This document shows, piece by piece, positions 10,221 to 58,124 of a stretch of 64,000 nucleotides of DNA. Source of the DNA: Verrucomicrobiia bacterium (GTDB lineage Bacteria > Patescibacteriota > Saccharimonadia > Saccharimonadales > JAGQNK01); contig DATHJY010000003.1 in assembly GCA_035489575.1 (NCBI GenBank), positions 53,800 to 117,799 of the forward strand, given 5' to 3'. The position numbers were made by a program, and so were the translations under genes. Under the pieces are notes generated by a model, which worked only from the letters and a program-made list of their open reading frames with translations, was not told where the DNA came from and searched no databases. Numbering within the stretch: position 1 is the first letter of the stretch; each line of letters starts with the position of its first letter.

Positions 10221-10297
10221 GGGCCAGTAGCTCAGCTGGTTAGAGCACCTGCCTCTTAAGCAGGGTGTCGAGGGTTCAAGTCCCTCCTGGCCCTCCA
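10221..10297 (+). tRNA. tRNA-Lys (anticodon CTT), CCA encoded
   Basis: cloverleaf: acceptor gggccag/ctggccc, D-arm gctc..gagc, anticodon stem cctgc/gcagg with loop ctCTTaa, T-arm gaggg-ttcaagt-ccctc, then tcca. Confidence 0.9.
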
Positions 10298-13040: not shown

Positions 13041-13178
13041 GGGGACTTGAACGGGCATGCCCTGTGGGCATTCCCCGCCCTTGGTTTTTGAGCTGTGCTC
13101 AAAAATGCCCGTATGCAAAAGTAATTTTCTTATGCCGGGCAGGGCAAGTCCCTCCTGGCACTCCAATTCGGTTATGCT
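13041..13178 (+). repeat. ~135-bp repeat copy A with terminal inverted repeats; 3' end mimics the tRNA-Lys 3' end (att-like / MITE-like)
   Basis: ~80% identical to 15934-16066; 5' ggggacttgaac is the inverse of 3' gcaagtccctcc; 3' end gcagggcaagtccctcctggcactcca vs tRNA gcaggg..ttcaagtccctcctggccctcca (15/15 core). Confidence 0.6.
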
Positions 13179-13183
13179 TAAAA

Positions 13184-13209
13184 CAGAGGTAATTTGCCTC
13201 TGTTTTTTG
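13184..13209 (+). terminator. intrinsic terminator hairpin (cagagg-taatttg-cctctg + T6)
   Basis: perfect 6-bp stem plus T-run; 25/26 identical to a second copy at 21286-21311. Confidence 0.55.
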
Positions 13210-13222
13210 ATACACTTTTACT

Positions 13223-15933: not shown

Positions 15934-16066
15934 GGACTTGACCGGGAAGATCTTGTGGCTGTTTCCCGCCGTTGGCTTTGAGCTGTGCTCAAAAATGCCT
16001 GTATGCGAAAGCATTTTTCTTTCGCCAGGCAGGTCAAGTCCCTCCTGGCTCCCCAAAGAAAATACA
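15934..16066 (+). repeat. ~135-bp repeat copy B with an 11-bp terminal inverted repeat and tRNA-Lys-like 3' end
   Basis: 5' gggacttgacc / 3' ggtcaagtccc (perfect 11-bp TIR); 3' ggcaggtcaagtccctcctggc shares the 15-nt core with tRNA-Lys; ~80% identical to copy A. Confidence 0.6.
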
Positions 16067-16785: not shown

Positions 16786-16989
16786 CCTCTTTTCTCGGTT
16801 TTCAATCAGCCGTGCGGCTACCAACTTGACAAACAAAGCCAATGACGGGATTATACGCAACAAATAGGTTTGACGCAATGGACGAAATATGTATTGCATA
16901 TGATATCTTACCCCTGTATACTGTGCCGGAACGATCCAAGATGGGTGGCTCGTTTTTTTGGACCTTCACAACCGAATTTGGAGGCTTAT

Positions 16990-18552
16990 GTGTCAGGCGG
17001 TATCGCCCTGGTAACCCCCTTCACCAAGTCCCATCGCACCGCCGAAGAGACTTTGGCGCTGGGGTACCTCGCTGCCGTTTTGCGTCATGCCGGACATGAT
17101 GTCTCTGTCGTTGATGGCTGGCTCGAAGCGCTCACCCTCGAAGAACTCGTCGATCGCATCGGCGCTGATGGACCCCCGGCCCTGGTCGGGATGTCCTGCT
17201 ATCAGTCCAACCTGCATCAGGCTGAACAAGTCGTACAGGCCCTCCGGGCTCGCTACGGCGATATCCCCGTGATCTGTGGCGGCTACGGCCCCACGTTCCA
17301 CGCGGAGTTCTTCCTGAAGGCCGGTTTCACCGTCGCTGTCATCGGCGAAGGCGAACACATCATCGTCCGTCTGGCGGAAGCGCTTATGAACGGGACCGAC
17401 CTCGGTTCCATTCCGAGCATTGCCTTCCTCAAGGATGGCCAGATGATGGAGACACTGCGGGCGGAACCGATCGTGGATCTGGACGAGATACCTTTCCCGT
17501 CCAGAGACACGGTGGGGCACGCCATTACGCGACGGAACTTCGTCCATGTCTGTACTTCACGCGGCTGTGAGGCGCACTGCAGCTTCTGTTCCATCTTCGC
17601 CTTCGCGGCCGGTGGATCCAGCAAGCTGCGTTGGCGTCACCGTGGTATCACGAACATCGTTGATGAACTCGAAGTCTTGCACCGCGAGTTCGGTGTGAGC
17701 GCCTTCAAGATCGTCGACGACAGCTTCATCGAACCGCCACGTGACGAAGCGTGGGCCGAAGCGTTCCGGGACGAGATCCTGGGCCGCGGGCTCACCATTC
17801 GGTTCCGTACTCAGGTGCGTGCCGACCGGCTCACTCCGGACATTGTCCGGGCACTCAGTGAAGCCGGTTGGTTCTCGACTGCGGTCGGCATCGAAAACGC
17901 GGCGCCAACCGCCCTCCGCCGGATGCGCAAGTTGGCATCCCCGGAAGACAACGAGGTAGCCCTCCAGCTCCTCGAAGCGCACGGCGTCTACGTCCAGATG
18001 GGCATGATCCTGTTCGACCCGGACACTACTCTGGACGAACTGGAGATCAACTTGGGGTTCCTGCGGCGCAACCGCTGGCCCTTCACTAAGGGGATCTTCA
18101 CCGAGATGTACGCCGCCGAAGGCACGCCGTTCACTGGACGGCTCGGCCGACGCGGACTGCTCGTCACGGCGAACGCCCAGAACTACAGCTATGAGGTTCA
18201 GGACCCGACGGTCCGGCGAGTGTATGAGATGCTCAAGTCCTGGCACCGTGCTCACAGCACGGTCTATGACTGGGTGATCGACTCACTCACCGCACCCAAG
18301 GTTTTGCCTGACGTTGCTTTTCGCGGGGCGCATGCTCTGTGTCGCCAGCTTCAGGCTATGGATCTTCGGTTTCTCGAGACTGTGCTCAGTCGTGTCTCGG
18401 AGGCTGCAATCCCCAGCGAAGACAGTGAGTTCGTAGCAGAATGGATTCGCACCGCGGAATCGTTCTACGTCGGCATCGAGGAAGCAATTGCTCGTCTCTA
18501 TGCAGACATCGGACTCCGGTACGAAGCTGTTCCCAACCCGTTCCTCACGTAG
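16990..18552 (+). CDS. B12-binding domain radical SAM protein (class B radical SAM, methyltransferase-like)
   Basis: N-terminal B12-binding Rossmann region (IALVTPF...LGYLAAVLRHAGHDVSVVDGW...ICGGYGPTF). CxxxCxxC in CTSRGCEAHCSFC. GC-rich. Start modelled at GTG 16990 after ggagg. Confidence 0.75.
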   Translation: MSGGIALVTPFTKSHRTAEETLALGYLAAVLRHAGHDVSVVDGWLEALTLEELVDRIGADGPPALVGMSCYQSNLHQAEQVVQALRARYGDIPVICGGYGPTFHAEFFLKAGFTVAVIGEGEHIIVRLAEALMNGTDLGSIPSIAFLKDGQMMETLRAEPIVDLDEIPFPSRDTVGHAITRRNFVHVCTSRGCEAHCSFCSIFAFAAGGSSKLRWRHRGITNIVDELEVLHREFGVSAFKIVDDSFIEPPRDEAWAEAFRDEILGRGLTIRFRTQVRADRLTPDIVRALSEAGWFSTAVGIENAAPTALRRMRKLASPEDNEVALQLLEAHGVYVQMGMILFDPDTTLDELEINLGFLRRNRWPFTKGIFTEMYAAEGTPFTGRLGRRGLLVTANAQNYSYEVQDPTVRRVYEMLKSWHRAHSTVYDWVIDSLTAPKVLPDVAFRGAHALCRQLQAMDLRFLETVLSRVSEAAIPSEDSEFVAEWIRTAESFYVGIEEAIARLYADIGLRYEAVPNPFLT

Positions 18553-18572
18553 GACCCGACAGAGGAGATGCA

Positions 18573-19751
18573 GTGACAGATACCACCAGCACGCCGGTCG
18601 TGCTCTCGCCCCGAGGCGGCATTCCGCCCCAGATCGAGAACATCGGCTGGACGCTCGGCAATGCGTGTCCCTACCGGTGCCCGCACTGCTACTCCACCAT
18701 CGTCCGTACCGCCAGTCTGAACATGACGACGGCTCACGTCGATCGTGTGGTCAGTGAGCTGGCGAGCATCGGCGTCCGTACCGTCAATCTGGGTGGCAAC
18801 GAGCCGCTCTACACCAGCGGTCCGAACGCCAAGGACACGGTGCTGCCGCACATCATCAAGTCGCTGTATGGCGCCGGCATCGTCGTGGGTCTCACCACGG
18901 CCGGCATCACCATGCAGTACATGTACAAGCATCACCGTGACGCGGTGGAGTTGCTCAACGACTGCGACATCAGCCTCGACAGCCCGTTCCCGGAGGAGCA
19001 CAACCGCAACCGCGGTGCCGCTCTCTACCCTCGGGCGCTTGATGCGATCCGCATCTGTCGCGAGCTCGGCATCGACCGCACTATCGTCATGTGCGGCATG
19101 AACTGGAACCTGTCGGAGAGTCACCTCAAGGCGCTCGTCCAAGCGGCGCGCGAGCAGGAGACCTTCATTAGGATCAACTTCATGAAGCCGACCGAATCGC
19201 AGCACATGGATCTAGTGCCAAGCCCGGCGGATTTCTACGCCGCGTGTGAGTACCTGTTCCGTCACTGCGACATCATCGAAATGGGCGAACCACTTGGTTC
19301 GGCTATATCCGGTGCGAAGTCCCGTGGCTGCCCTTGTGGCACGAAGTCGTTCCGGATCCACTCGATGACCGCCGACGGCAAGCTGCCGGTCAGCCCGTGC
19401 GTCTACGCCCACCAGTACAAGGTGGGAGACCTCCTGACTGACAGCCTCTACGACATCGTGCGCACCCCGGAGTTCCAGGCGTTCCGCCAGCGGCGACACG
19501 ACCCGGATTCCATCGCGGAATGCCATGGCTGTGAGTACGTCGAGGAGTGCCGGGGCGGCTGCGCCGCGCGTGCCTACCTGTGGCGGGAGTTCACGGAAGG
19601 TGGCGGTTCGATCGTGACCGATCGTGACCCCTACTGCCTCAAGGACTTCGGAGACTCCGGTCTCACGCCGCCGGCCAACATGGTCATGCAGGACAAGGTG
19701 CTCGTTCACCGCGACTACCTCTGCACGGTCATCGGGAAGCCGAAGGACTAA
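18573..19751 (+). CDS. radical SAM / SPASM-domain protein (peptide- or cofactor-modifying maturase-like)
   Basis: N-terminal CPYRCPHCY (CxxxCxxC); C-terminal Cys-rich SPASM region CHGCEYVEECRGGCAARAY plus CPCG...SPC; GTG start 18573 with gaggag SD; 21-nt gap after the upstream rSAM. Confidence 0.75.
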   Translation: MTDTTSTPVVLSPRGGIPPQIENIGWTLGNACPYRCPHCYSTIVRTASLNMTTAHVDRVVSELASIGVRTVNLGGNEPLYTSGPNAKDTVLPHIIKSLYGAGIVVGLTTAGITMQYMYKHHRDAVELLNDCDISLDSPFPEEHNRNRGAALYPRALDAIRICRELGIDRTIVMCGMNWNLSESHLKALVQAAREQETFIRINFMKPTESQHMDLVPSPADFYAACEYLFRHCDIIEMGEPLGSAISGAKSRGCPCGTKSFRIHSMTADGKLPVSPCVYAHQYKVGDLLTDSLYDIVRTPEFQAFRQRRHDPDSIAECHGCEYVEECRGGCAARAYLWREFTEGGGSIVTDRDPYCLKDFGDSGLTPPANMVMQDKVLVHRDYLCTVIGKPKD

Positions 19752-39633: not shown

Positions 39634-40008
39634 CTATACTAGTAAGCTTTGTATGGTAAGCGCCAGTTGCTTGGGCGATAGGGTAGACTTGAGGATATTT
39701 TCGGACACTCCCAAAGCTATCATTTGGTCCAGTTTCTGTTGATCAGATAGGTTGCTAAAAGCAATAACTTTAACACTTGGAAAATTCTTGGTGAGCTTTG
39801 CGAGGGTTAGGAATGTCACTCCATCCATTTCGGGCATGAGGATGTCTAGCAGAATAAGGTCGGGCTGAAAAGTTTTGAGCTGCTTGAGCGCCAGCCGGCC
39901 ATTGGTGGCCGTTGCCACTTCATAACCTTCCTGCGTCAGGATTTGGCAATACGCCTCGCGCAAGATTTGTTCGTCCTCGACAACCAGTATTTTATACTTA
40001 GTTCCCAT
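39634..40008 (-). CDS. receiver-only response regulator (CheY-like)
   Basis: ILVVEDEQ...DLILLDILMPEMDG...K; 124 aa, no output domain; 11-nt overlap with upstream HK. Confidence 0.75.
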   Translation of the reverse strand: MGTKYKILVVEDEQILREAYCQILTQEGYEVATATNGRLALKQLKTFQPDLILLDILMPEMDGVTFLTLAKLTKNFPSVKVIAFSNLSDQQKLDQMIALGVSENILKSTLSPKQLALTIQSLLV

Positions 40009-48637: not shown

Positions 48638-49186
48638 TCACTGGGGCAGCAGAGCCTTGAAGGCGCCTTCCTTCCGGTTTTGGACCTTGTGCTTGATGAG
48701 CTTTCGGACCAGCCAGTAGGTGACTAGGAGCAGGAGCCCCAGCTTGCTGCAGAGGGACCACAGTTGGAACGCTTCTTGCTGCAGGGGCAGGTGTGTCATG
48801 CCGACGGCAGTCCACGCTTTCTGCATGAGTAGGTCGGCGTTGCCGAGGACGATGGTCAGGAGCTGCTGCATCAGGATGACGTCCAGGAGCTTGATGAGCA
48901 AGAACACGAAGGGGGCCATCATGGTGGTAGCCATGGCCACGTCGACGGTGGTGCCTTCCACCTTGCTTGGGGTTCGATGAGCCTGCAGGTACTTGGTCTC
49001 GGCGGCGTCCAGGACGGACAGGTGGCCGAGCCAGAAGATCACCGCGCAGATGGCAGTAAACACGATCCAGCCAACCACGGCGGGCAGGCTGAGGAGTGCG
49101 AGTACCAAGGCAAGTCCTCCATTGTTAAGGGTGACACGAGTTGTCACGCTTATGATTATACCATATTTGATAAGTATTTTACACAA
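48638..49186 (-). CDS. hypothetical membrane protein (GC-rich)
   Basis: multiple TM helices. Confidence 0.4.
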   Translation of the reverse strand: MCKILIKYGIIISVTTRVTLNNGGLALVLALLSLPAVVGWIVFTAICAVIFWLGHLSVLDAAETKYLQAHRTPSKVEGTTVDVAMATTMMAPFVFLLIKLLDVILMQQLLTIVLGNADLLMQKAWTAVGMTHLPLQQEAFQLWSLCSKLGLLLLVTYWLVRKLIKHKVQNRKEGAFKALLPQ

Positions 49187-49363: not shown

Positions 49364-50650
49364 TTATACTTGGGAGATAGCCAGTCGTAGCATGTCTTCG
49401 GGCATGCGGCTGGGGTAGATGGTTTTGTAGTCGTAGTTGGGCGGCAGCTCGTAATGATACTTGAGCAAGTCTGGATAGACGGTTTGCGCCATGGTCATGG
49501 CGGCCCGCGATTCTTTGACTTCGCCCACGCACTCTAGTGGTTTTTCGCCGGCAATGCCCAGCAGCTGTTCGTAGGTAGGTTCTAGCTTGGGGTCGTGCAG
49601 CAGGTTTTTGCCACTCCACAATTTTTCTAGATCCGCGCGGGGGATGAACGGTGTGAGCATGAGGAAGATAAAGGCACACTTTGGACATTCACCACACCAC
49701 GACATGCGGTCACTGGTGTGTATGTAGGCGCGGTTACAGCTGCTAAAAACATCTTTGTATTTCTCGAAACTCAGGCGCGCAAAGAACTCGGCAATGCGGA
49801 GCTCACTAAAGGGACGCAGCAGAGAGTAGTAGCGAATGCTATCACCAAAAAAAAGAGTCAGCACTGCTTGAAAATCCTGTTCGAATTCCTCGGATTTTGA
49901 GTACTGATGGTTGATGGCTACACCTTGATAGTGCAGAGTTGGCTCGTTGGCAGATTGCTCATTGGCCATAACCACGTCTCTTTTACCAGTCAGGATGGCT
50001 ACGACAGTACCCACACAGGCAAAGATAGCGGATATGGGAATATGACCGTTCAGGGCATCTTTTTCTTTAAGCTCCATAATTTGCTTGTCCCACTGACGCT
50101 CTACCCATTTGTGGGGCAGCCCAATACGTTCGACTAATGGTGTAAGCTGCGGGCGATGATTGACACTCCAGGTGGCTAAGTCAGAATGCTTAGGACGTAG
50201 TAGTTCTATGGCTACCAGGGAGTCTTTCCCGCCGCCTACGCTCGCGAGTGGGCCGGTGCCGGTATGGTGTGCTTCCTTGATAACGTTCGTGGTTATTGGA
50301 AAGGTGACCGGTGTGCGGGGGTCTAGTTGGTTTTCATACCAGAATTCACCCAAACCACGTTGATAGGTCTTAGAGAAAAAGCTGGCGAGCGGCCTATCCA
50401 GCTGACCACGGCGCACAACAATTTCTGAAGGAATATACATTTTGTAGTAAGAGACGCCGGCCATAAAAAACAGCAGCTGAAAGGCGCGGTCTAGGGTTGC
50501 TTGGTTGTACTGCGCAAAATCAAAGTCGAACTTGTAGGTTTCGGTCAGCTTGAGGGCATCATCAAAAGCATATTGGAGCTTTAGTATTTTGGTGTTTTCG
50601 TCAAACTGGTAGTCTTCAAAGATGAATTGATTGTATTTGTTGGGTCTCAT
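49364..50650 (-). CDS. PP-loop (SGGxDS) ATP-pyrophosphatase superfamily protein with C-terminal CxxC
   Basis: LASVGGGKDSLVAIELL; CGECPKC; 4-nt overlap with murD stop. Confidence 0.45.
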   Translation of the reverse strand: MRPNKYNQFIFEDYQFDENTKILKLQYAFDDALKLTETYKFDFDFAQYNQATLDRAFQLLFFMAGVSYYKMYIPSEIVVRRGQLDRPLASFFSKTYQRGLGEFWYENQLDPRTPVTFPITTNVIKEAHHTGTGPLASVGGGKDSLVAIELLRPKHSDLATWSVNHRPQLTPLVERIGLPHKWVERQWDKQIMELKEKDALNGHIPISAIFACVGTVVAILTGKRDVVMANEQSANEPTLHYQGVAINHQYSKSEEFEQDFQAVLTLFFGDSIRYYSLLRPFSELRIAEFFARLSFEKYKDVFSSCNRAYIHTSDRMSWCGECPKCAFIFLMLTPFIPRADLEKLWSGKNLLHDPKLEPTYEQLLGIAGEKPLECVGEVKESRAAMTMAQTVYPDLLKYHYELPPNYDYKTIYPSRMPEDMLRLAISQV

Positions 50651-51975
50651 AGGGCGTTCACTGCTTCTTTGTACTGGATGCCTCGGTCCTCGAAGTTCTT
50701 GAACATATCAAAACTGGCAAAACCTGGTGACAGCACTACCTTGTCGCCGGGATGAGCAGCGGACTTGGCGTGATCGACAACATTTTTCATGGCGGCGTCT
50801 TGCAGTACGTCGTAATTGGTAAAACCATGCACGGACAAGGCTTTTTCTATATGAGGGGCTGATTGGCCGATGATAATAACCCGCCGTAGGTCCTCTTGGT
50901 GTTTGACGATACCACGAGCTAGTTCGCCCAGATCCAGCCCGCGGTCAAAGCCGCCAATAAGCATGACTTTGCTGCCAACAATTGCGTCCATGGCCGCTAC
51001 AGTAGCTGGGGGTGCGGATGCAAAAGAGTCGTTGTAATAAGTTACGCCGTCTACCTCACGGACGCGCTCCAGGCGGTGGGGTAGGCCAGCCAGACCGGCA
51101 ATGGCCTTACGAATAGCTGGCACGTCTTGGGTGATATTCCATACAGCGGTGACGGCAGCGCAGACATTTTGCCAGTTGTGTTTGCCCAAGAGTTTGATGT
51201 CTGATATGTCACAAATTTTGTGGTGGTCTATCATGACGTACTCTTCGCCTTCGGCGTTGTCGGTCACGTAGGCACCCGGGTCGGCCATGAAGGGCATGAT
51301 ACTGCCGGCGGTAGATTCTGCTATAGCTTGGGAATAGTGGTTGTTGGCGTAATAAATGGCAATGTCTTGTTCTGCCTGGTGGACAAATAGCTGGCGTTTA
51401 GCCTCTACATATTCGTCTATGTCGGCATGCCAGTTGAGGTGTTCGGGCTCGATTAGCAGGCAGACGGCAATATGGGGTGACGATTTGAGATCTATCAGCT
51501 GGAAGTTGGCTAGCTCTAGTACCACCCAATCATCTGGCTTGATACCGTCCTTTAGCATGTCCAATGGTGGTATGCCAATATTACCGCCCAGATGTACTCG
51601 GTGGCCGGCTGCTTCTAGCATCCGGGCAATAAGGATACAGGTAGTGCCTTTACCCTTTGTGCCGGTGACGCCAATGATATTGCGGGTGGGACAGACCTCG
51701 AGGAATTCGTTGGTATTGGTCCAGATTTTTTCTAGGATATCCGGTGCATCGGGATTTGCCTCTTGGATTTGCCGAGGATGAATAACGGGGGTGCGAATAA
51801 TTAGATCGTATTGGTCCAACTTTTCCAGGTATTCTGGCCCCAACTGTTTTTTTGCACCAGGCGGGATGTGCTTTTTGGTGTCAATATCGCAAATAGTAAT
51901 ATCGTTTTCGGGTTTGCCCCAATAGTCGTAGGCCGACTTGCCCTGTCCTTCAAAGCCCAAGATAGCTATCTTCAT
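50647..51975 (-). CDS. murD: UDP-N-acetylmuramoylalanine--D-glutamate ligase
   Basis: GVTGTKGKGTT P-loop, GGNIGIPPLD, C-terminal LSPGFASFDMFKNFEDRG is the typical MurD end. Confidence 0.8.
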   Translation of the reverse strand: MKIAILGFEGQGKSAYDYWGKPENDITICDIDTKKHIPPGAKKQLGPEYLEKLDQYDLIIRTPVIHPRQIQEANPDAPDILEKIWTNTNEFLEVCPTRNIIGVTGTKGKGTTCILIARMLEAAGHRVHLGGNIGIPPLDMLKDGIKPDDWVVLELANFQLIDLKSSPHIAVCLLIEPEHLNWHADIDEYVEAKRQLFVHQAEQDIAIYYANNHYSQAIAESTAGSIMPFMADPGAYVTDNAEGEEYVMIDHHKICDISDIKLLGKHNWQNVCAAVTAVWNITQDVPAIRKAIAGLAGLPHRLERVREVDGVTYYNDSFASAPPATVAAMDAIVGSKVMLIGGFDRGLDLGELARGIVKHQEDLRRVIIIGQSAPHIEKALSVHGFTNYDVLQDAAMKNVVDHAKSAAHPGDKVVLSPGFASFDMFKNFEDRGIQYKEAVNAL

Positions 51976-51996
51976 AGGGTCTATTGTATCAAGAAT

Positions 51997-52503
51997 CTAG
52001 CTGTCCTCTTTGACTTGCTTTCGAAAAGCAAAACGGTAGCTTCCATACTGACTGATAGCAGCCGCAATCACTATGAAGAGCTGAAACTGTAGAAAGGTTG
52101 GAAGATTACTGGTCAGTGTGGGGTCGGGCCCCTCTGGTGAAGCTGTAAGGCTTACGATCGTAATGAATAAAACAACAAGGATCAGGAGAAAGACCCAGGG
52201 TAGTACTTTGAGTCGTAGCTGTTTTCTGAATATAAACAAGACAAATGGCTGTACCAGGAGGGCAAAATACTGTAGCGCTGCCAGAAGAGACCACAGGGGA
52301 TTGTAGTAGGACGGCAGCTGCCGGTAGCTTGGATCTTTTAGCGCGAACATGTTTTGTTCGTACTCAACACGGAATTTGCCCAGAACGACAATAAGTATAA
52401 AACCCAAGACCATCAACCCTGTGAGTACAAGCAGCCCCTTGAGCGCTTGTCTAAGAAAATCGGACTGACTTGTGGTGGGTGAATTACTTTCCATGGCGAC
52501 CAT
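51997..52503 (-). CDS. hypothetical membrane protein
   Basis: 168 aa, 4-5 TM. Confidence 0.4.
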   Translation of the reverse strand: MVAMESNSPTTSQSDFLRQALKGLLVLTGLMVLGFILIVVLGKFRVEYEQNMFALKDPSYRQLPSYYNPLWSLLAALQYFALLVQPFVLFIFRKQLRLKVLPWVFLLILVVLFITIVSLTASPEGPDPTLTSNLPTFLQFQLFIVIAAAISQYGSYRFAFRKQVKEDS

Positions 52504-52525
52504 GCACTAGAGGATTCAACGCTTA

Positions 52526-52888
52526 TCAGGAGCCAAGAAAGCTGATAGATAGATCGCTTATCCAGTCGGCCAGAGGTTTCAGGATGATCAGCTGTATGCC
52601 AAACAAGATGAGTAATATGTTGGTGGTGCGATTGAAAACCTGTTTTTTATCCTTCACAAATAGCAAAAGGATGGGAAGCATGATCAAGGTTGCTACCGAG
52701 AGTACGACCCATACAAGCGCTAGGGGCTCGGCGGCGCTCACCAGCCAGCCATCCTGTTTGTCTATGGTCAGATATGACACAAGCGTACCGATGATATAAA
52801 AGATAATTTGAAGTGACAGAACTACATTAAATGCCCACAAAAACTTCTTTGCAAACGGTTCAGAAAAATATTTCATTACTCTTAGCAA
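52526..52888 (-). CDS. hypothetical membrane protein
   Basis: 120 aa, 3-4 TM. Confidence 0.4.
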   Translation of the reverse strand: MLRVMKYFSEPFAKKFLWAFNVVLSLQIIFYIIGTLVSYLTIDKQDGWLVSAAEPLALVWVVLSVATLIMLPILLLFVKDKKQVFNRTTNILLILFGIQLIILKPLADWISDLSISFLGS

Positions 52889-53069
52889 AGCACACGATTT
52901 GCCCTACTTCAATCAAAATGTCGACAAAGGCGAAGATATCGACTTTTCGGATATACTTTTTCTTGTAAAATAATTTCTGCTATTGAACATTTCCAGATTG
53001 TTAGAGGTGTTATACCAAAGCTGAGGCATCCCCTGCTTCAGGATCCGCCGCAAATCCGAGGAGTCCCCC

Positions 53070-54092
53070 GTGCGAAAGTACATCGTCGGTCTACTGACCG
53101 TTGTGTGCATGACCATCGGCATGCTGTGCATGCCGACCGCCCCCGCTGACGCTCAGGCGTCACAGACCTTTCGGATCGCTCGGACCGAGATCGGCATCCG
53201 CTTCCGGACCAACCCGAACGACTGGAACTCCGCTGCTGGCCCCGCTGGCTACGACGGTGACTGGGTGACGCTGCACTGCGTGCGCGAAGGCACCGCTGTC
53301 GGCCCCTACAACAACCGCATGTGGTACCAGGCCACGACTGCCACAGGGTCGGGCTGGCTCCCGGATCGGTACACCACCACGCCGATCAACGCCAACGAGT
53401 GGCTGCCCAACCTGTCCAAATGTGACCAGCCGGCTCCGGCTGCTGCGCCAACCCCGGCAAGCCAGTCGGTGTTCTTCTCGCCCAACGAGACCCCCGGTGG
53501 GCAGGACGGGCTGAACCCCGGAACGACCAACCTCAAGCTGTCGCAGTGGGCTGGCGGTGAAGGGTGTTCGGCTGACAACGTCATGTCCTCGGTCCCGGCC
53601 AACACGACCACCATCGCTGGCTGGAGTCGCGGGCGTATGGGTGTGGTCTACTTCCTGACAAAGGCTACGCCCCGGCAGATGCAGCAGCTGGACACCATCG
53701 TCCTCTTCGATCCAGGCAGCGCCCGCAATTTCGAGGATCGCTGGGTCATCAGCTGGGATCCACACCAGGAGGCTTGCGATGACAATTACGACATCAATGG
53801 CTTGCTGGCCAACTGGCTGAAGTCTGAGCGCGAGAAGCGGTTGATCGTGGTAACTGGTCACGACAGTGAGATGTACGAGTTCGCCGGCCTTTGGGACCAC
53901 TATTTCGCTGGCATCTGGGCGTTGGACGATGACATCAGTGCGGCGCGTGCGCGCGTTTGCGACTACACCAACATGGACCACTACGTCCTGATGCGGCAGT
54001 TCGCTGGCATGGTGAAGAGCCCTCCAGACAGCTGCCCCCGTGGTGTCGGCAACCAGGACGCCGTCAAGGGCGCCCAGGGCTGGCACCCGTAG
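53070..54092 (+). CDS. secreted hypothetical protein (GC-rich)
   Basis: signal peptide LLTVVCMTIGMLCMPTAPADA; GC-rich. Confidence 0.5.
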   Translation: MRKYIVGLLTVVCMTIGMLCMPTAPADAQASQTFRIARTEIGIRFRTNPNDWNSAAGPAGYDGDWVTLHCVREGTAVGPYNNRMWYQATTATGSGWLPDRYTTTPINANEWLPNLSKCDQPAPAAAPTPASQSVFFSPNETPGGQDGLNPGTTNLKLSQWAGGEGCSADNVMSSVPANTTTIAGWSRGRMGVVYFLTKATPRQMQQLDTIVLFDPGSARNFEDRWVISWDPHQEACDDNYDINGLLANWLKSEREKRLIVVTGHDSEMYEFAGLWDHYFAGIWALDDDISAARARVCDYTNMDHYVLMRQFAGMVKSPPDSCPRGVGNQDAVKGAQGWHP

Positions 54093-54185
54093 TTCAATAG
54101 CAACCTTGCCGGAGGGCAGCGTGTTCGAGCGTTTTTCGCTCCTCGCACTGCTCCTCCGGCCCTACCATTTATAAAATATTCCACA

Positions 54186-54283
54186 CATGAAGAAAGACCC
54201 GTCAAGCGCAGAACCCTGGTAAGGGTATCGGTGCTGAAGAATCTTTCTCCAGTACGTGCATTTGACGAGTCTTGTTGCTCGTT
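54186..54283. repeat. conserved ~100-nt structured element, copy 1 (3' of membrane-protein paralog)
   Basis: catgaagaaagacccgtcaagcgcag...gtgctgaagaa.tctttctcc...ttgacgag.cttgttgctcgt; interleaved complementary blocks agaaagac/gtctttct and cgtcaagc/gcttgacg. Confidence 0.5.
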
Positions 54284-54293
54284 CTTTGTTGGG

Positions 54294-54782
54294 CTAGCCC
54301 TGGGGCTGGGGTGGGAAGGGGTCGAGGCGCCAGATGCACCACTCCAGGAAGTGCGCGTAGGCGTAGCCTCCAGCCAGCATGATCGGCAGGGCCCAGGGAA
54401 GGACCAAGAACATGCCCAAGCTGGCAGGCACGACCACCCCGAGGCCCAGCACGAGTGCGCCGAACGTGGCGACCTGGTGCTTTGTGGGTAGGAGCAGGCA
54501 GCCAAGGGCCAGCGAGAAGACCACCACGGAGACGACTCCACCTAGCAGCAGGAAGCTGACAGAGAGGCGTTCACCAGGCAGCTTGGTTCCAAGGCACACG
54601 GTACCCAGGAAGAGGGGCCACTGCAGGGCAGCCAGGACTCTGGTCAGACGCAGCCGGATGGGACCCCAGCCGGTTGTCTGGCTCTTCAGCCATTGCTCTC
54701 GCTGAGCATCTACCTGAGCGGCATCAACTGCCTTGATGGCTGCGTCCGTAGTCACGGATGCGGAAGTGTCTTGAGGGGTCAA
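54294..54782 (-). CDS. small polytopic membrane protein, paralog 1 of 3
   Basis: TM helices; C-terminal ...LDPFPPQPQG shared with paralog 3 (...LDPYPPALQ). Confidence 0.5.
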   Translation of the reverse strand: MTPQDTSASVTTDAAIKAVDAAQVDAQREQWLKSQTTGWGPIRLRLTRVLAALQWPLFLGTVCLGTKLPGERLSVSFLLLGGVVSVVVFSLALGCLLLPTKHQVATFGALVLGLGVVVPASLGMFLVLPWALPIMLAGGYAYAHFLEWCIWRLDPFPPQPQG

Positions 54783-54836
54783 AAGAGAGACTCCAGGGGT
54801 TAGATACGAGCAAGGACATACAACCTGTTACGACAG

Positions 54837-54871
54837 ATCGTAGGACATATATTATAATATTTTTCCACATA
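54837..54871 (-). promoter_or_regulatory. conserved promoter motif (TTATAATATATnTnnTACGAT) upstream of paralog 1
   Basis: shared with 55593-55620 and 57245-57272, each ~60-85 nt upstream of a paralog start. Confidence 0.4.
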
Positions 54872-54881
54872 AATTACAAGG

Positions 54882-54977
54882 CATGAAGAAAGGCTCGTCA
54901 AACGTGGGATACCCTGTAGGGGCGCCAGGTGTGAAGAGACTTTCTTCACTCACGTCTGACAAGCCTTGATGCTCGTC
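54882..54977. repeat. conserved structured element, copy 2
   Basis: catgaagaaaggctcgtcaaacg...gtgaagagactttcttc...tgacaagccttgatgctcgtc. Confidence 0.45.
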
Positions 54978-54995
54978 GTACTGGGCGGATGTTCG

Positions 54996-55541
54996 TTAGA
55001 CCGGCCGGGTGGGTCGGCGGTTGAGGAGCGCCATGGGGATGTGGGCGTGCAGCACCATGAAGATGATGCCGAGGTAGCCCATGATGATGCCGGTGAGCAC
55101 CGGATAGTCACTGCCCGCCGGACCGTCGAAGGCTGCGTTGATCAGCAGGACGGGAACGACAGACGAAACCACGGTGGCCGCGCCAACGTAGAGCAGTCCA
55201 CGGTGGTGGGCGGGACGCCACAGGACGGCGCACGACAGGCCGATGGCCACAATCCTGACGATCAGGAAGGCGGCGGTGGGCAGCGTGTGCGTCGAGGCCT
55301 GCGACGAATCGTCGGGCAAGTTGGGCAGAGCCCATGCGGCCGTAGCGAACCACTGTACGAAGCCGGCCGGAACCAGCCACAGCATCCGGGCGTCGTATGA
55401 CTCCCATTGGGCCATGCGCTGCCGGTGCTCCTCGTCCCGATGGGCTTGCTCGCGGCGAGCGGCAGCCTCGGCGAGGGAGGGTTGAGTGGTCTTGCCAGCG
55501 CCGGTGATGAGCAGCGATAGTACGGTGTCAAGAAAGGGCAT
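54996..55541 (-). CDS. small polytopic membrane protein, paralog 2 of 3
   Basis: 181 aa; similar architecture. Confidence 0.45.
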   Translation of the reverse strand: MPFLDTVLSLLITGAGKTTQPSLAEAAARREQAHRDEEHRQRMAQWESYDARMLWLVPAGFVQWFATAAWALPNLPDDSSQASTHTLPTAAFLIVRIVAIGLSCAVLWRPAHHRGLLYVGAATVVSSVVPVLLINAAFDGPAGSDYPVLTGIIMGYLGIIFMVLHAHIPMALLNRRPTRPV

Positions 55542-55592
55542 GGTATCTCCAGGGGGTGGGTGAGTACGAACGAGAACGTACGATCTGCCGAA

Positions 55593-55620
55593 GACTAATC
55601 GTAATAGATATATTATAACA
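55593..55620 (-). promoter_or_regulatory. conserved promoter motif upstream of paralog 2
   Basis: aatcgtaatagatatattataaca. Confidence 0.4.
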
Positions 55621-55636
55621 CAAAAAATTACTTAAT

Positions 55637-56557
55637 TCAATCTCTTGTCAGGAGGGAGTCCAGCAAGGCGCCACCTCCCCCCAGCAAAATATGCGGGTCG
55701 GTTGGTCCTTGTTTGTGGACAAAGCGTGTTTCTGGCACGTGCCCCGCCAAGGGAGTGTCCGAGGCCATGAGCTCATCGACGGCAGTTCTGTAAGCATCTT
55801 CGTCCAGCTTGAGCCCGTGTCCGGTCGTATCCCAGCTGATGATAAGTACCTGGGCAGTGGAAGCTCGACCAAGTCTGCCTGCCATCAGCGCCAACTGGTG
55901 GGGATCAATCTCTGACGGCGTATCTGGTGTCTGCTCTGGCGCTTGTTCTACTGCGGGCTTATCGGGCAGTTGTGGCCAGTCCGGGTGAGCAATGTCGTGG
56001 AAGGGCGCCGGAAGGTCGATAGCCCTCCAGGATTTGTTGATCCTGTGTACTGCACCACCGGTCAAATTCCTCCTGCCTAAATCGATTCCAGCAACGGCAT
56101 CGGCACTGGGATTGTAGGCTGCCGCCGCATGGGCTACGAGGGTGTTGTAGTGGACCACTTCATACAGGGGTCTATACTGGAATAAACGGTCAAACTCCTC
56201 TCCTTGGGCGCGGATTCCGCTGACGATATTGATCGGATCTTCTATGTCATGCACATGTGGCGTGTCCCGCAGCCAATTTGGCGCCGCCGCGCCGTCATAG
56301 ACGCCTCTACGACGTATATTCCCGTGCAGCGCAACTACGGTGGATCCGGTGCCTTTTTGGCGCCCTTCCTGCAAGGTGTGAGCTAAGAACCTGTAAAAGT
56401 TCTCTAGATCGTATGGCACATCTGTAAATTCGTAGGCTTCGGCAGAGGCCTCGCCCCGGAGTCTGGTGGTAGTTTCGCCTACCAAAGCACCATTATCGCT
56501 GTCGATTGCCACTACCAGATCACGTCCGACCACCACGGGGGCTCGTTCGTCTGCCAT
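55637..56557 (-). CDS. hypothetical protein (possibly metallophosphoesterase-like)
   Basis: 306 aa, GC-rich; weak LHGN motif only. Confidence 0.35.
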   Translation of the reverse strand: MADERAPVVVGRDLVVAIDSDNGALVGETTTRLRGEASAEAYEFTDVPYDLENFYRFLAHTLQEGRQKGTGSTVVALHGNIRRRGVYDGAAAPNWLRDTPHVHDIEDPINIVSGIRAQGEEFDRLFQYRPLYEVVHYNTLVAHAAAAYNPSADAVAGIDLGRRNLTGGAVHRINKSWRAIDLPAPFHDIAHPDWPQLPDKPAVEQAPEQTPDTPSEIDPHQLALMAGRLGRASTAQVLIISWDTTGHGLKLDEDAYRTAVDELMASDTPLAGHVPETRFVHKQGPTDPHILLGGGGALLDSLLTRD

Positions 56558-56623
56558 AGCTTGACCCTCTTTTAGTACTTAATAGTATAAATCGCCTGAG
56601 AATCAAATTCAAAGCTTGGGCCA

Positions 56624-56723
56624 CATGAAGAAAGACCCGTCAAGCGCAGAAAACCCAGTAAAGGGCATCGGTGCTGAAGAAGTCTTTCTCCAGTGTCTGT
56701 GCTTGACGAGCCTTGTTGCTCGT
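56624..56723. repeat. conserved structured element, copy 3
   Basis: ~85% identical to copy 1 with non-triplet indels. Confidence 0.5.
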
Positions 56724-56737
56724 CTCTGTTGGTGTGG

Positions 56738-57187
56738 CTATTGCAGTGCGGGCGGGTAAGGGTCCAGGCAGGACAGCGCCAGCCTGAGGCTGATGGCGTA
56801 GGCGGCGCAGCCCAGGACCGTCAGTGGCAGTGGGCTGTCGAGCTGGTAGCCCGCATAGAGCGGCCCGAAGGTGCCGAATACGAGAATGGCTGCCAGGAAC
56901 AGGGTCCGCTGCTTCGTGCTGCCTGAACTGGGCAGGAGACACATGGTGGCGATCATTACTCCACTGCTGGTGATCGCGCCAATCAGCCAGGGGCCGATGG
57001 GGAGCACTGGATGCTCGTGGAGCTTGGTGGCCATGAGGTTGAAGTAGATATCCCACTGCAGGACGGCCAGGATGGAAAGCACGATCACAGCGAGTCGCTG
57101 GTCATGTTGACGCTTCTCCCATGCCTCTCGCTTGGCCATCAGCTTGGTGACGTCGGCATCAGGGGTGGTCGGTGATTGGAGGTTCAT
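56738..57187 (-). CDS. small polytopic membrane protein, paralog 3 of 3
   Basis: ATG MNLQSPTT with SD cgggag (track ORF extends to GTG 57229). Confidence 0.5.
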   Translation of the reverse strand: MNLQSPTTPDADVTKLMAKREAWEKRQHDQRLAVIVLSILAVLQWDIYFNLMATKLHEHPVLPIGPWLIGAITSSGVMIATMCLLPSSGSTKQRTLFLAAILVFGTFGPLYAGYQLDSPLPLTVLGCAAYAISLRLALSCLDPYPPALQ

Positions 57188-57244
57188 TGAAAACTCCCGG
57201 TAGACGAGCAAGAACGTACAATTTGTCACATCACGCGTGAAGTA

Positions 57245-57272
57245 CCAAATCGTAAGATGTATACTATAAAAC
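57245..57272 (-). promoter_or_regulatory. conserved promoter motif upstream of paralog 3
   Basis: aatcgtaagatgtatactataaaac. Confidence 0.4.
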
Positions 57273-57297
57273 TTTTACGGCTATATATCAATTGCTT

Positions 57298-57675
57298 CTA
57301 GGTTGCCAGCTCGGCTTTGACCATCTCGGCCACCTGGCGGGGTGTCATCTCTGCTTTTACGATAAAACGGCGGACGTTGAGTTCTTTGATAATGTCGGGT
57401 GCTTCTTGTTCGCCCATGTTGGTCAAAACAATAACTTTGATGTTCTTGCCCCAGTCGGTGCCACGAAGTTTTTGTAGCATCTCGTCGCCGTTCATTTCGG
57501 GCATCATCAGGTCTAGAAGAATAATGTCGGGCTTCAGGTGTTCTGCTAGGGCTAGGCCGCGCCTGCCGTTATCAGCGGTCTCTACCTGATAGCCTTCGGC
57601 CTCAAACTTGATGCGATACATCTGGGCAATGGCTTGGTCGTCCTCGATGATCGCGATCTTTATATGAGAGCTCAT
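57298..57675 (-). CDS. receiver-only response regulator
   Basis: IAIIEDDQ...DIILLDLMMPEMNG...; 125 aa. Confidence 0.75.
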   Translation of the reverse strand: MSSHIKIAIIEDDQAIAQMYRIKFEAEGYQVETADNGRRGLALAEHLKPDIILLDLMMPEMNGDEMLQKLRGTDWGKNIKVIVLTNMGEQEAPDIIKELNVRRFIVKAEMTPRQVAEMVKAELAT

Positions 57676-57740
57676 ATATCCATCCTACACCTTTTTAGAG
57701 CCTATCTCCACGCCCTCTTGTAAAGAAGCGTGCAGATGAC

Positions 57741-58124
57741 TCACCGCTTAGTGCCCAAGATTTCGTCGACGACTTCGCATACCTGGGTAGGGGTGTAGTG
57801 GGCTTTTACGATATAGCGATCGACATTCAGCAATCGCAGCGTATGAGGGGCTTCGTCTTTGCTGAGGTTGGTTAGAATAATAACCTTTATCCTGCTGCCC
57901 CAGTCGGTGGCACGCATCTTCTGCAACATTTGATCACCGTTCATTTCGGGCATCATAAGATCTAGCAAAATCAAGTCAGGAGTAAAAGACTCAACGAGTG
58001 CCAAGCCTTGCTTTCCATCGTGGGCGGTCATGACCTTGTACCCACAATTTTCCAACTTGAAAGCATACATAGCAGCTATCGCTGGATCATCTTCTATAAC
58101 GGCAATTTTGTGGAGCGATGACAT
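57741..58124 (-). CDS. receiver-only response regulator (tandem paralog)
   Basis: IAVIEDDP...DLILLDLMMPEMNG...; ~60% identical to neighbour. Confidence 0.75.
   Translation of the reverse strand: MSSLHKIAVIEDDPAIAAMYAFKLENCGYKVMTAHDGKQGLALVESFTPDLILLDLMMPEMNGDQMLQKMRATDWGSRIKVIILTNLSKDEAPHTLRLLNVDRYIVKAHYTPTQVCEVVDEILGTKR

Follow-up and report, generated by a model that had tools for sequence, protein, structure and literature searches.

A structured 3′ element linked to a family of small membrane-protein genes in Saccharibacteria and its possible role as a branched terminator

A 64,000-nucleotide (nt) stretch of contig DATHJY010000003.1 (assembly GCA_035489575.1), hereafter the window, carries on its minus strand an array (54186-57291) with three G+C-rich open reading frames (ORFs) for small membrane proteins, each followed by an element of about 100 nt. 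The element is a repeat, is linked exclusively to this gene family, is under purifying selection, has a fold of one long stem (P2) and two inner hairpins (P3 and P4) with compensatory changes, and lies at the ends of transcription units. We see about an even chance that it acts as a branched intrinsic terminator that also stabilizes the 3′ end of the message, within a conserved expression module. From its sequence and position we infer a cis-acting RNA in the 3′ untranslated region (3′UTR) of lineage-specific small membrane-protein genes in soil Saccharibacteria, whose P2/junction stem and interrupted U-tract would terminate the transcription unit. The element would afterwards shield the mRNA 3′ end from 3′-5′ exonucleases, and by a predicted refolding its U-rich tail may pair with GGAGAAAGR of P3, burying the 3′ end. 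Together with a strong sigma-70 promoter and a 5′-terminal hairpin, the element would make up the conserved module, placed around fast-evolving ORFs that are gained and lost.

An element confined to one membrane-protein gene family

The genes and element copies of the array are as follows.

54294-54782, minus strand: membrane-protein ORF 1, 162 amino acids (aa), C-terminus LDPFPPQPQG, TTG start codon
54996-55541, minus strand: membrane-protein ORF 2, 181 aa, C-terminus ...LLNRRPTRPV
56738-57187, minus strand: membrane-protein ORF 3, 149 aa, about four predicted helices, C-terminus LDPYPPALQ
55637-56557, minus strand: gene for a 306-aa soluble protein of unknown function, inside the array, with its own promoter and without a 3′ element
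54186-54283, minus strand: 3′ element copy 1, 113 bits with the covariance model, last of the array and facing a convergent 340-aa gene
54882-54977, minus strand: 3′ element copy 2, 109 bits, of the subtype with GAGCC before the tail, as in metagenome contig L014; long stem of 17 pairs
56624-56724, minus strand: 3′ element copy 3, 117 bits; its tail ...TCTTCATG ends at 56624

The three ORFs, first proposed in an earlier note made from the sequence alone, are also called by public annotations (P0001, P0122 and P0125), the annotated counterpart of ORF 1 being a 99%-identical protein. That note took all three for paralogs with a common LDP(F/Y)PP motif. This holds for proteins 1 and 3, which carry the motif and match each other in BLASTP (E 6e-10, 32% over 145 aa), but not for protein 2, which ends in ...LLNRRPTRPV and whose similarity is marginal (E 0.024, 32 aa). 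The common architecture does extend to protein 2, with a charged N-terminus, a QW motif and about four transmembrane helices. Pairwise, the three ORFs are 21-34% identical in amino acids. An AlphaFold model of a family membrane protein shows four helices at low confidence (a predicted local distance difference test score, pLDDT, of 63). An exhaustive HMMER profile search of 1.84 billion representatives returned only the three window proteins, protein 1 through its cluster representative P0123, and one further protein, P0124. No family in Pfam, NCBIfam or PHROGs matched any of the three membrane proteins, the 306-aa protein or the 340-aa protein, and a PDB sequence search with the latter two found no significant match.

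An nhmmer profile finds exactly three copies of the element in the window (E 1e-36 to 1e-41), at the places where the note had put them, and a covariance model recovers the same three and no others. The 20-mer TTGACGRGYCTTTCTTCATG occurs three times in the window against 0.00 expected. The distance from stop codon to element is 11, 18 and 13 nt. Copies 1 and 3, described beforehand as about 85% identical with indels, align at 84% identity with 3 gap columns, and copy 2 is 67-68% identical to both. Conservation is indeed at the level of nucleotides and not of peptides, as short ORFs on either strand vary in length and sequence among copies. A small encoded peptide was rejected: ORFs from the conserved ATG span 5-12 aa (sense) or 11-44 aa (antisense), none has a Shine-Dalgarno (SD) sequence, and their sequences are unrelated among copies beyond what DNA conservation forces. 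A recoding signal or selenocysteine insertion sequence (SECIS) was rejected as well, with stop codons (TAG, TAA, TGA) and spacing that vary and downstream frames that are not conserved. Against Rfam 15, the window at gathering score matched tRNA-Lys only and gave no match for the element, the region 54100-57350 at E<=10 gave chance matches only, and ARAGORN found no tRNA or tmRNA at the element region. A ribozyme, a riboswitch and a tRNA-like RNA were rejected, there being no Rfam or ARAGORN match.

Relatives were obtained by a metagenome pattern scan and by look-ups of homologous proteins. The earlier note had proposed looking in relatives for the element beside homologous membrane genes, and copies exist in four metagenome contigs (L014, L025, L026 and L027), in the first three behind a homologous or similar membrane ORF. 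In L014 it comes after a 170-aa membrane ORF, which itself comes after an orthologous response regulator. L025 begins with a partial copy, continues with the ortholog of the 306-aa gene (303 aa) and has the element after P0123, the ORF 1 ortholog (70-72% identical, with the same TTG start). In L026 the element stands after P0124 and before murD, and the 5′ region carries TATAGTATATATATTACGAT...GTTCTTGCTCGT motifs. The elements of L027 lie behind small ORFs that are like the family in size and layout. One cassette of this contig is followed by a short variant (L027:11048-11125) with one stem, one inner hairpin and the tail GGGTCTTTATACAT, which the covariance model matches at E 1e-4. At L027:12128-12161, where the contig ends, the start of a full-type element has its first segments (GACGAGCAACCAGGCTCGTCAA) within the last codons of the second ORF of a two-gene operon. 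This operon has nothing between its ORFs and an element start only at its end. What lies downstream of the element in relatives varies: a 126-aa ORF, murD or the end of the contig.

Exact-pattern scans of GTDB genomes (18-20-nt pattern) gave 6 matches, all short chance matches, and scans of viral contigs gave 0 and 25, all chance by the covariance model; only one of the 14 metagenome matches, L014, was real. Neither cassettes nor the element were found in L021-L024 and L028-L030, syntenic regions reached via the conserved response regulator, and the eight related contigs without the gene family have no element. About 12 kb of extra flank from the same genome held no further copy, which brings the genome sequence searched to ~76 kb, window included. 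A dispersed repeat (REP/BIME, Correia, BOX and other MITE-like elements) has many copies irrespective of the neighboring gene; here there are three in ~76 kb, all behind family ORFs. Because the element always follows a family gene and is itself followed by varied genes, it is specific to this membrane-gene family.

Divergence among cassettes, that is, each ORF with its promoter, 5′ untranslated region (5′UTR) and element, is concentrated in the coding part. In 40-nt windows, cassettes 1 and 3 are 35-55% identical in ORF DNA, 45-65% in promoter and 5′UTR and 80-85% in the element, with no visible continuation of the conserved unit into the ends of the ORFs. Between the window and L025, the synonymous divergence (dS) is 0.53 for ORF 1 and 1.6 for the 306-aa gene, and the ratio of nonsynonymous to synonymous divergence (dN/dS) is 0.34 and 0.11, indicating that both are real coding genes. 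The element is under purifying selection, differing in the same comparison at ~16% of sites, well under the dS of the neighboring genes. Its subtype tracks that of the ORF: copy 2 and L014 both have GAGCC before the tail, and their proteins share a weak similarity. This pairing of subtypes argues that the element is inherited with its ORF.

These data bear on whether the element is simply a functionless remnant, its similarity left over from recent tandem duplication or gene conversion. The copies are neighbors, and copies 1, 3 and that of L025 are equidistant (84-85%), which is compatible with some concerted evolution. However, the ORFs have fallen to 21-34% amino-acid identity where the element still stands at 67-84%, substitutions in the stems are compensatory, other genomes retain the element behind ORFs that are only 23-37% identical, and divergence between orthologs is well below dS. 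A remnant is already disfavored and, in our estimate, quite improbable.

Fold of the element and its position at the ends of transcription units

The fold was derived with RNAalifold from an unguided MAFFT alignment of six copies. On the sense strand, P2 closes a three-way junction with hairpins P3 and P4; it has 17 base pairs (bp) in RNAalifold and 14-17 bp across copies, and its base AAGRCTYGTCAA.../...TTGACGRGYCTT is found in all of them. Directly after P2 comes an invariant tail, YCUUUCUUCAUG (YCTTTCTTCATG). In copy 3 the parts lie as follows.

56718-56724, minus strand: segment A (GACGAGC)
56698-56714, minus strand: 5′ strand of P2
56674-56693, minus strand: P3 hairpin
56654-56665, minus strand: P4 hairpin
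56632-56648, minus strand: 3′ strand of P2

The P2/P3/P4 structure has 90.5% of its cells paired. The earlier note had proposed to judge the element by covariation, and compensatory changes are present: in six pairs both partners have changed, whereas column shuffles yield 2.2 ± 1.0 such pairs (0/500 reach six) and slid controls yield 0-3. The pairing of P4 is kept with wholly different sequence, CCC/GGG in one case and GCACT/AGTGC in L026. Each copy also folds better than its shuffles (z -3.8 to -4.8).

The folding energies of the two strands are similar. G·U cells outnumber A·C cells by 14 to 4, suggesting that the fold is better on the mRNA-sense strand. This is relevant to an antisense small RNA, one of the options of the earlier note. 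In a fuller form of that option, the element would be the gene of such an RNA on the plus strand, convergent with the membrane gene and overlapping its 3′ end, like a 3′-overlapping type I antitoxin RNA. Plus-strand promoter-like sites do face element 2 (54830-54858) and element 3 (56561-56588), and in copy 1 a hairpin described below as P1 is followed on the plus strand by CTTTGTTGGG and is called terminator-like. The plus-strand fold is about as stable as the minus, and the genes encode hydrophobic membrane proteins behind strong promoters. However, the plus-strand matches are mirror images of A+T-rich promoters, those that serve the following genes on the minus strand. Their distances from the element, 24 and 36 nt, are not conserved, none is called for element 1, and no convincing -10 is seen in L014 or L026. 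The G·U excess favors the sense strand, proteins of 149-181 aa with about four helices are not peptides under 60 aa, and a dN/dS of 0.34 fits an ordinary protein under selection. An antisense gene is improbable on this evidence.

The interleaved complementary blocks to which the note had drawn attention, suggesting a pseudoknot or alternative hairpins, are present in all copies, and the GGAGAAAGR/YCTTTCTTC pairing is kept in 6/6 of them (97% of cells). GGAGAAAGR is the 5′ arm of P3 and can form 9-12 bp with the tail in each of the six copies; this pairing appears in the minimum free energy (MFE) fold of two. Since it cannot coexist with full P2, it is an alternative pairing and not a demonstrated pseudoknot. 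Segment A, upstream, duplicates the 3′ strand of P2 and can pair with the 5′ strand of P2 as hairpin P1. P1 and the tail stem together form an alternative nested fold, the MFE in copy 3 and L025. The P1 and tail:GGAGAAAG pairings are possible in all copies, at an energy close to that of the P2-containing fold, fold Y. Covariation in P1 and the tail stem amounts to one double change, which 159/500 shuffles match, in near-invariant columns. This alternative fold appears possible from the sequence.

Two possible folds raise the prospect of a bistable RNA switch at the 3′ end, with fold Y (B:A′, equal to P2, the terminator) opposed to fold X′ (P1, formed by A:B, plus the stem GGAGAAAGAC:GUCUUUCUUCA). 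The choice between them would set read-through into the next cassette or the fate of the mRNA, and might depend on a ribosome that finishes translation 11-18 nt before segment A, or on base pairing between A and the 5′UTR box TTGCTCGTC. In favor of a switch, segments A (GACGAGC) and A′ (GACGRGY) are near-duplicates, both complementary to B; P1 is formable in all copies (81% of cells paired), as is the tail stem (97%); and the MFE is X′ in copy 3 and L025 and Y in the other four, so the energies are close. Moreover, cassette 3 has 10 nt of complementarity between the 5′UTR box and A (reached by 7/1000 shuffles), and in L027 both sides change together (TTGCCCG/CGGGCAA). However, the covariation of P1 and the tail stem is not significant, as described above, and neither is the 5′-3′ complementarity in 6/7 cassettes, with duplex energies no better than shuffles. 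The distance from the stop codon to A runs from overlap in L014 to 47 nt in L026, with A inside the ORF in L027, which argues against a fixed ribosome-sensing geometry. In addition, a free CAAGCGC toehold should presumably let P2 displace P1 quickly, and the downstream genes carry their own promoters. We therefore regard a switch as unlikely. A 5′UTR-3′UTR duplex as a general feature was rejected, not being significant beyond cassette 3.

A fuller version of this idea is a two-state 3′-end device that would terminate via B:A′ and then refold to P1 and GGAGAAAGAC:GUCUUUCUUCA, burying the 3′ end and maybe contacting the 5′UTR box, thereby tuning cassette expression. It seems to us a doubtful proposition. 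If true, it would act as a portable expression module with the conserved promoter and 5′UTR, by which ultra-small Saccharibacteria could exchange or acquire hypervariable membrane proteins at one set location, the hot spot that separates the regulator pair from murD.

A terminator or regulatory structure of the 3′UTR is the best supported of the options that had been listed: the compensatory changes are on the sense strand, the element is always behind a family gene, and it is the only terminator-like structure of each transcription unit. No other such structure lies between the response-regulator stop and the cassette 3 promoter, or between the stop of the 306-aa gene and the cassette 2 promoter. 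With no other in the 3.1-kb array, each element closes one transcription unit. Every copy is followed by the next promoter, just downstream, or by a convergent gene. The short variant of L027, a plain stem and TCTTTAT, resembles an ordinary terminator.

Several observations weigh against a branched intrinsic terminator. The tail UCUUUCUUCAU is interrupted by C, with 6 U in its first 9 nt; P2 encloses a branched insert of ~50 nt; and a consensus terminator scan (loop 3-8 nt) does not call the element. Canonical terminators with a clean T-run exist at 13184-13212 in the window and after the response regulator in L027, and a simple hairpin would therefore suffice. Both CTTTCTTCATG and TTGACG are invariant across copies, beyond what a terminator needs, which hints at a sequence-specific partner for them. 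Finally, six or seven copies from about five lineages make the covariation statistics thin.

Promoters, cassette turnover and the genomic hot spot

The 5′ parts of the transcription units, in the order of transcription, are listed here.

57263-57291, minus strand: cassette 3 promoter, TTGATA-17-TATAGT (10/12), 8 nt past the response-regulator stop with no terminator between
57188-57262, minus strand: cassette 3 5′UTR, hairpin TACGATTTG...CAAATTGTA by the predicted transcription start, SD GGGAG
57204-57215, minus strand: conserved box GTTCTTGCTCGT of the cassette 3 5′UTR
56584-56612, minus strand: promoter of the 306-aa gene, TTGAAT-17-TATACT, 12 nt downstream of element 3 and kept in L025
55612-55640, minus strand: cassette 2 promoter, TTGAAT-17-TATAAT, TG before the -10
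55542-55611, minus strand: cassette 2 5′UTR, hairpin TACGAT...ATCGTA, box GTTCTCGTTCGT (55566-55577), SD GGAG
54851-54879, minus strand: cassette 1 promoter, TTGTAA-17-TATAAT, beginning 3 nt after element 2
54783-54850, minus strand: cassette 1 5′UTR, hairpin TACGATC...GGTTGTA, box GTCCTTGCTCGT (54806-54817), SD GGAG, TTG start

Every cassette ORF has a near-consensus sigma-70 promoter, TTGxxx-17-TATAAT, agreeing at 10/12 consensus positions. The promoter motif that had been noticed beforehand, TTATAATATATNTNNTACGAT, occurs three times against 0.02 expected and overlaps the -10 box. The 306-aa gene has its own promoter and no terminator, and its co-transcription with the next cassette is thus probable; at its 3′ end, the stop codon runs into the -35 box of cassette 2. 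A box-like match, GTTCTTGCTCAT at 48894-48905, was rejected since it lies inside an unrelated ORF. Downstream of murL, an unrelated membrane-protein gene (48638-49186, minus strand) has a TATAAT promoter followed by a hairpin, GTGACA...TGTCAC, near the -10. 5′-terminal hairpins may be general in this genome.

Cassette 2 (5′UTR, ORF, element and spacer; 54866-55640) is wholly absent from L025:1003-1095. The junction falls within an 11-nt promoter repeat, TTATAATATAT, and not in the element, which points to gain or loss by unequal recombination between promoters. This event speaks to a recombination site, another suggestion of the earlier note. At the DNA level, the element could be a folded single-strand recombination site resembling attC, a transposon-end hairpin or a homology arm for cassette insertion, excision or exchange. 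The array does lie in a hot spot of varying content, cassette 2 is present here and absent in L025, and the element is at the 3′ end of each cassette, as attC is; attC sites are also folded and can be branched. However, the one mappable cassette gain or loss has its boundaries in the promoter repeat, RYYYAAC/GTTRRRY core sites are absent, each cassette is served by a promoter of its own, and the flanking genes tested to the left and right of the array yielded no integrase or transposase domain. ORF and element subtypes go together (copy 2 with L014), so the element is no universal junction. A role as a DNA site is very improbable in our view.

The array is flanked by paired single-domain response regulators (57298-58124) on one side and murD/murL (49364-51975) on the other. 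Domain tests of genes on both sides gave these response regulators, an LPG_synthase_C protein, unknown membrane or secreted proteins and murD/murL. The response regulator beside the array has hundreds of homologs at 80-97% identity, and those with a source name are variously labeled Candidatus Saccharibacteria/Saccharimonadales or Limnocylindria, whereas the metagenome-assembled genome that holds the array bears the label Verrucomicrobiae; the host of the array is taken to be a member of the soil Saccharibacteria. This genome is met again in SRR7026570 and ERZ27268085. The interval between response regulator and murD (51975-57298) is a variable island, or hot spot, whose content varies among genomes with response regulators 85-93% identical. 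In L029 the regulator directly adjoins murD and the interval is empty, and unrelated genes fill it in L021-L024 and L028. The closest relative, a 27-kb contig of Joint Genome Institute (JGI) 3300078620 with a regulator 93% identical, contains a PIN toxin pair together with a run of five small ORFs, the final one being P0124, the family member mentioned above.

Other features of the window were observed along the way. The convergent 340-aa protein (53070-54092, plus strand) shows a faint, non-significant SH3 similarity (residues ~76-108), a Pro/Ala linker and an unknown C-terminal domain; its gene is followed at 54109-54159 by a 51-nt G+C-rich hairpin (CCGGAGG...CCTCCGG) with a T-run on neither strand. 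A 46-nt repeat family (39821-39866, 57488-57533 and 57937-57982) has one member in each of the two response-regulator genes and one in a further ORF (39634-40008), and is probably conserved coding sequence (the MPEMNGDE region) rather than a separate element. The 3′ end of tRNA-Lys(CTT) (10221-10297) recurs twice downstream, at 13087-13172 and 15977-16062, each time as part of a direct repeat of 80 nt; the two repeats share 88% identity and are separated by ~2.9 kb. The arrangement resembles a tandem of small islands that inserted at the tRNA. Those ORFs of this region that were tested encode an APH-type kinase, YunG, an AAA_18 kinase and a methyltransferase, with no integrase among them; in L057, a related contig, YunG is followed by a PhdYeFM/YoeB toxin-antitoxin pair instead. 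Right after the second tRNA-Lys repeat, a G+C-rich block (16870-19751; 60-62% vs ~50% for the genome) encodes a B12-binding radical SAM protein beside a radical SAM/SPASM protein. Radical SAM pairs of this kind are seen in clusters for peptide modification (ribosomally synthesized and post-translationally modified peptides, RiPPs).

Significance and comparison with known systems

If the reading as a branched terminator is right, the element is a structured RNA motif without an Rfam 15 match from the Candidate Phyla Radiation, in which, to our knowledge, cis-regulatory RNA is almost unexplored. It would also represent an unusual design for ending transcripts, in which the stem is branched, the tail is invariant and the element itself supplies a pairing partner for the tail. 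More broadly, the genes flanking the hot spot are conserved, and within it lie arrays of strongly promoted, fast-evolving small membrane-protein genes. Regulatory ends that are better conserved than the coding sequence are typical of surface-variation or immunity-type gene families, and the pattern could bear on how epibiotic bacteria handle hosts or competitors. Its practical reach is limited, with about seven copies in a narrow clade and a function that is predicted. Taken together, the element is a new lineage-restricted RNA motif of a known kind, narrow in distribution and modest in importance.

The element matches neither an attC site nor any Rfam family, in the ~76 kb searched it does not behave as a dispersed repeat, and a type I toxin-antitoxin locus is improbable. 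Integron cassettes are similar in being co-oriented small genes, each followed by a ~100-nt imperfect palindromic, sometimes branched element, and in their varying content. Here, in contrast, there are no attC cores (the base of the stem is the same in all copies and contains no GTTRRRY), the flanking genes tested include no integrase, each cassette has a promoter, and the indel that sets the array apart from L025 (cassette 2) is bounded by the repeat TTATAATATAT in promoters. In type I toxin-antitoxin systems with a 3′-overlapping antisense RNA, such as txpA/RatA and bsrG/SR4, the toxin is a hydrophobic peptide under ~60 aa. A membrane-protein gene, a strong promoter and a conserved structured region over the 3′ end are shared with these systems. 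In contrast to them, the proteins here have 149-181 aa, no conserved antisense promoter is found and the structure favors the sense strand.

Pairing of 3′UTR and 5′UTR within one mRNA is known from icaR of Staphylococcus aureus and hbs of Bacillus subtilis. Similarly, in most cassettes the 5′UTR box TTGCTCGTC is complementary to the first segment of the element, GACGAGCAA; unlike in those cases, the complementarity spans 6-10 nt, is significant in one cassette only and does not cover the SD. A riboswitch or attenuator in the 5′ leader of a downstream gene does not fit either: the element always lies behind a family ORF, and the varied genes downstream have their own promoters.

Tsuru and Kobayashi (2008; PMC2568036) have described clusters of tandem paralogs that are conserved between the ORFs and variable in the ORF centers. 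These clusters share with our array the conserved inter-ORF segments around divergent tandem paralogs and a copy number that differs between strains. The array differs in its Saccharibacteria host, in conserving a promoter/5′UTR and a folded 3′UTR with compensatory changes, and in a conserved unit that does not visibly reach into the ORF ends.

The closest comparison for the proposed function is an ordinary intrinsic terminator. As there, the element has a G+C-rich stem that runs straight into U-rich sequence, although an interrupted one, and sits where a transcription unit stops, before the next promoter. In contrast to such a terminator, two conserved hairpins (~50 nt) lie within its stem and make a three-way junction, its tail is C-interrupted and invariant (YCUUUCUUCAUG), and it has an upstream duplicate of the 3′ strand (segment A) and an inner segment complementary to the tail. 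We know of no ordinary terminators that are conserved in sequence between paralogs at 21-34% protein identity. Among known terminators, the element comes nearest to Rho-independent ones whose U-tracts are imperfect and which depend on NusA/NusG. The short relative in L027, for its part, resembles a plain terminator hairpin.

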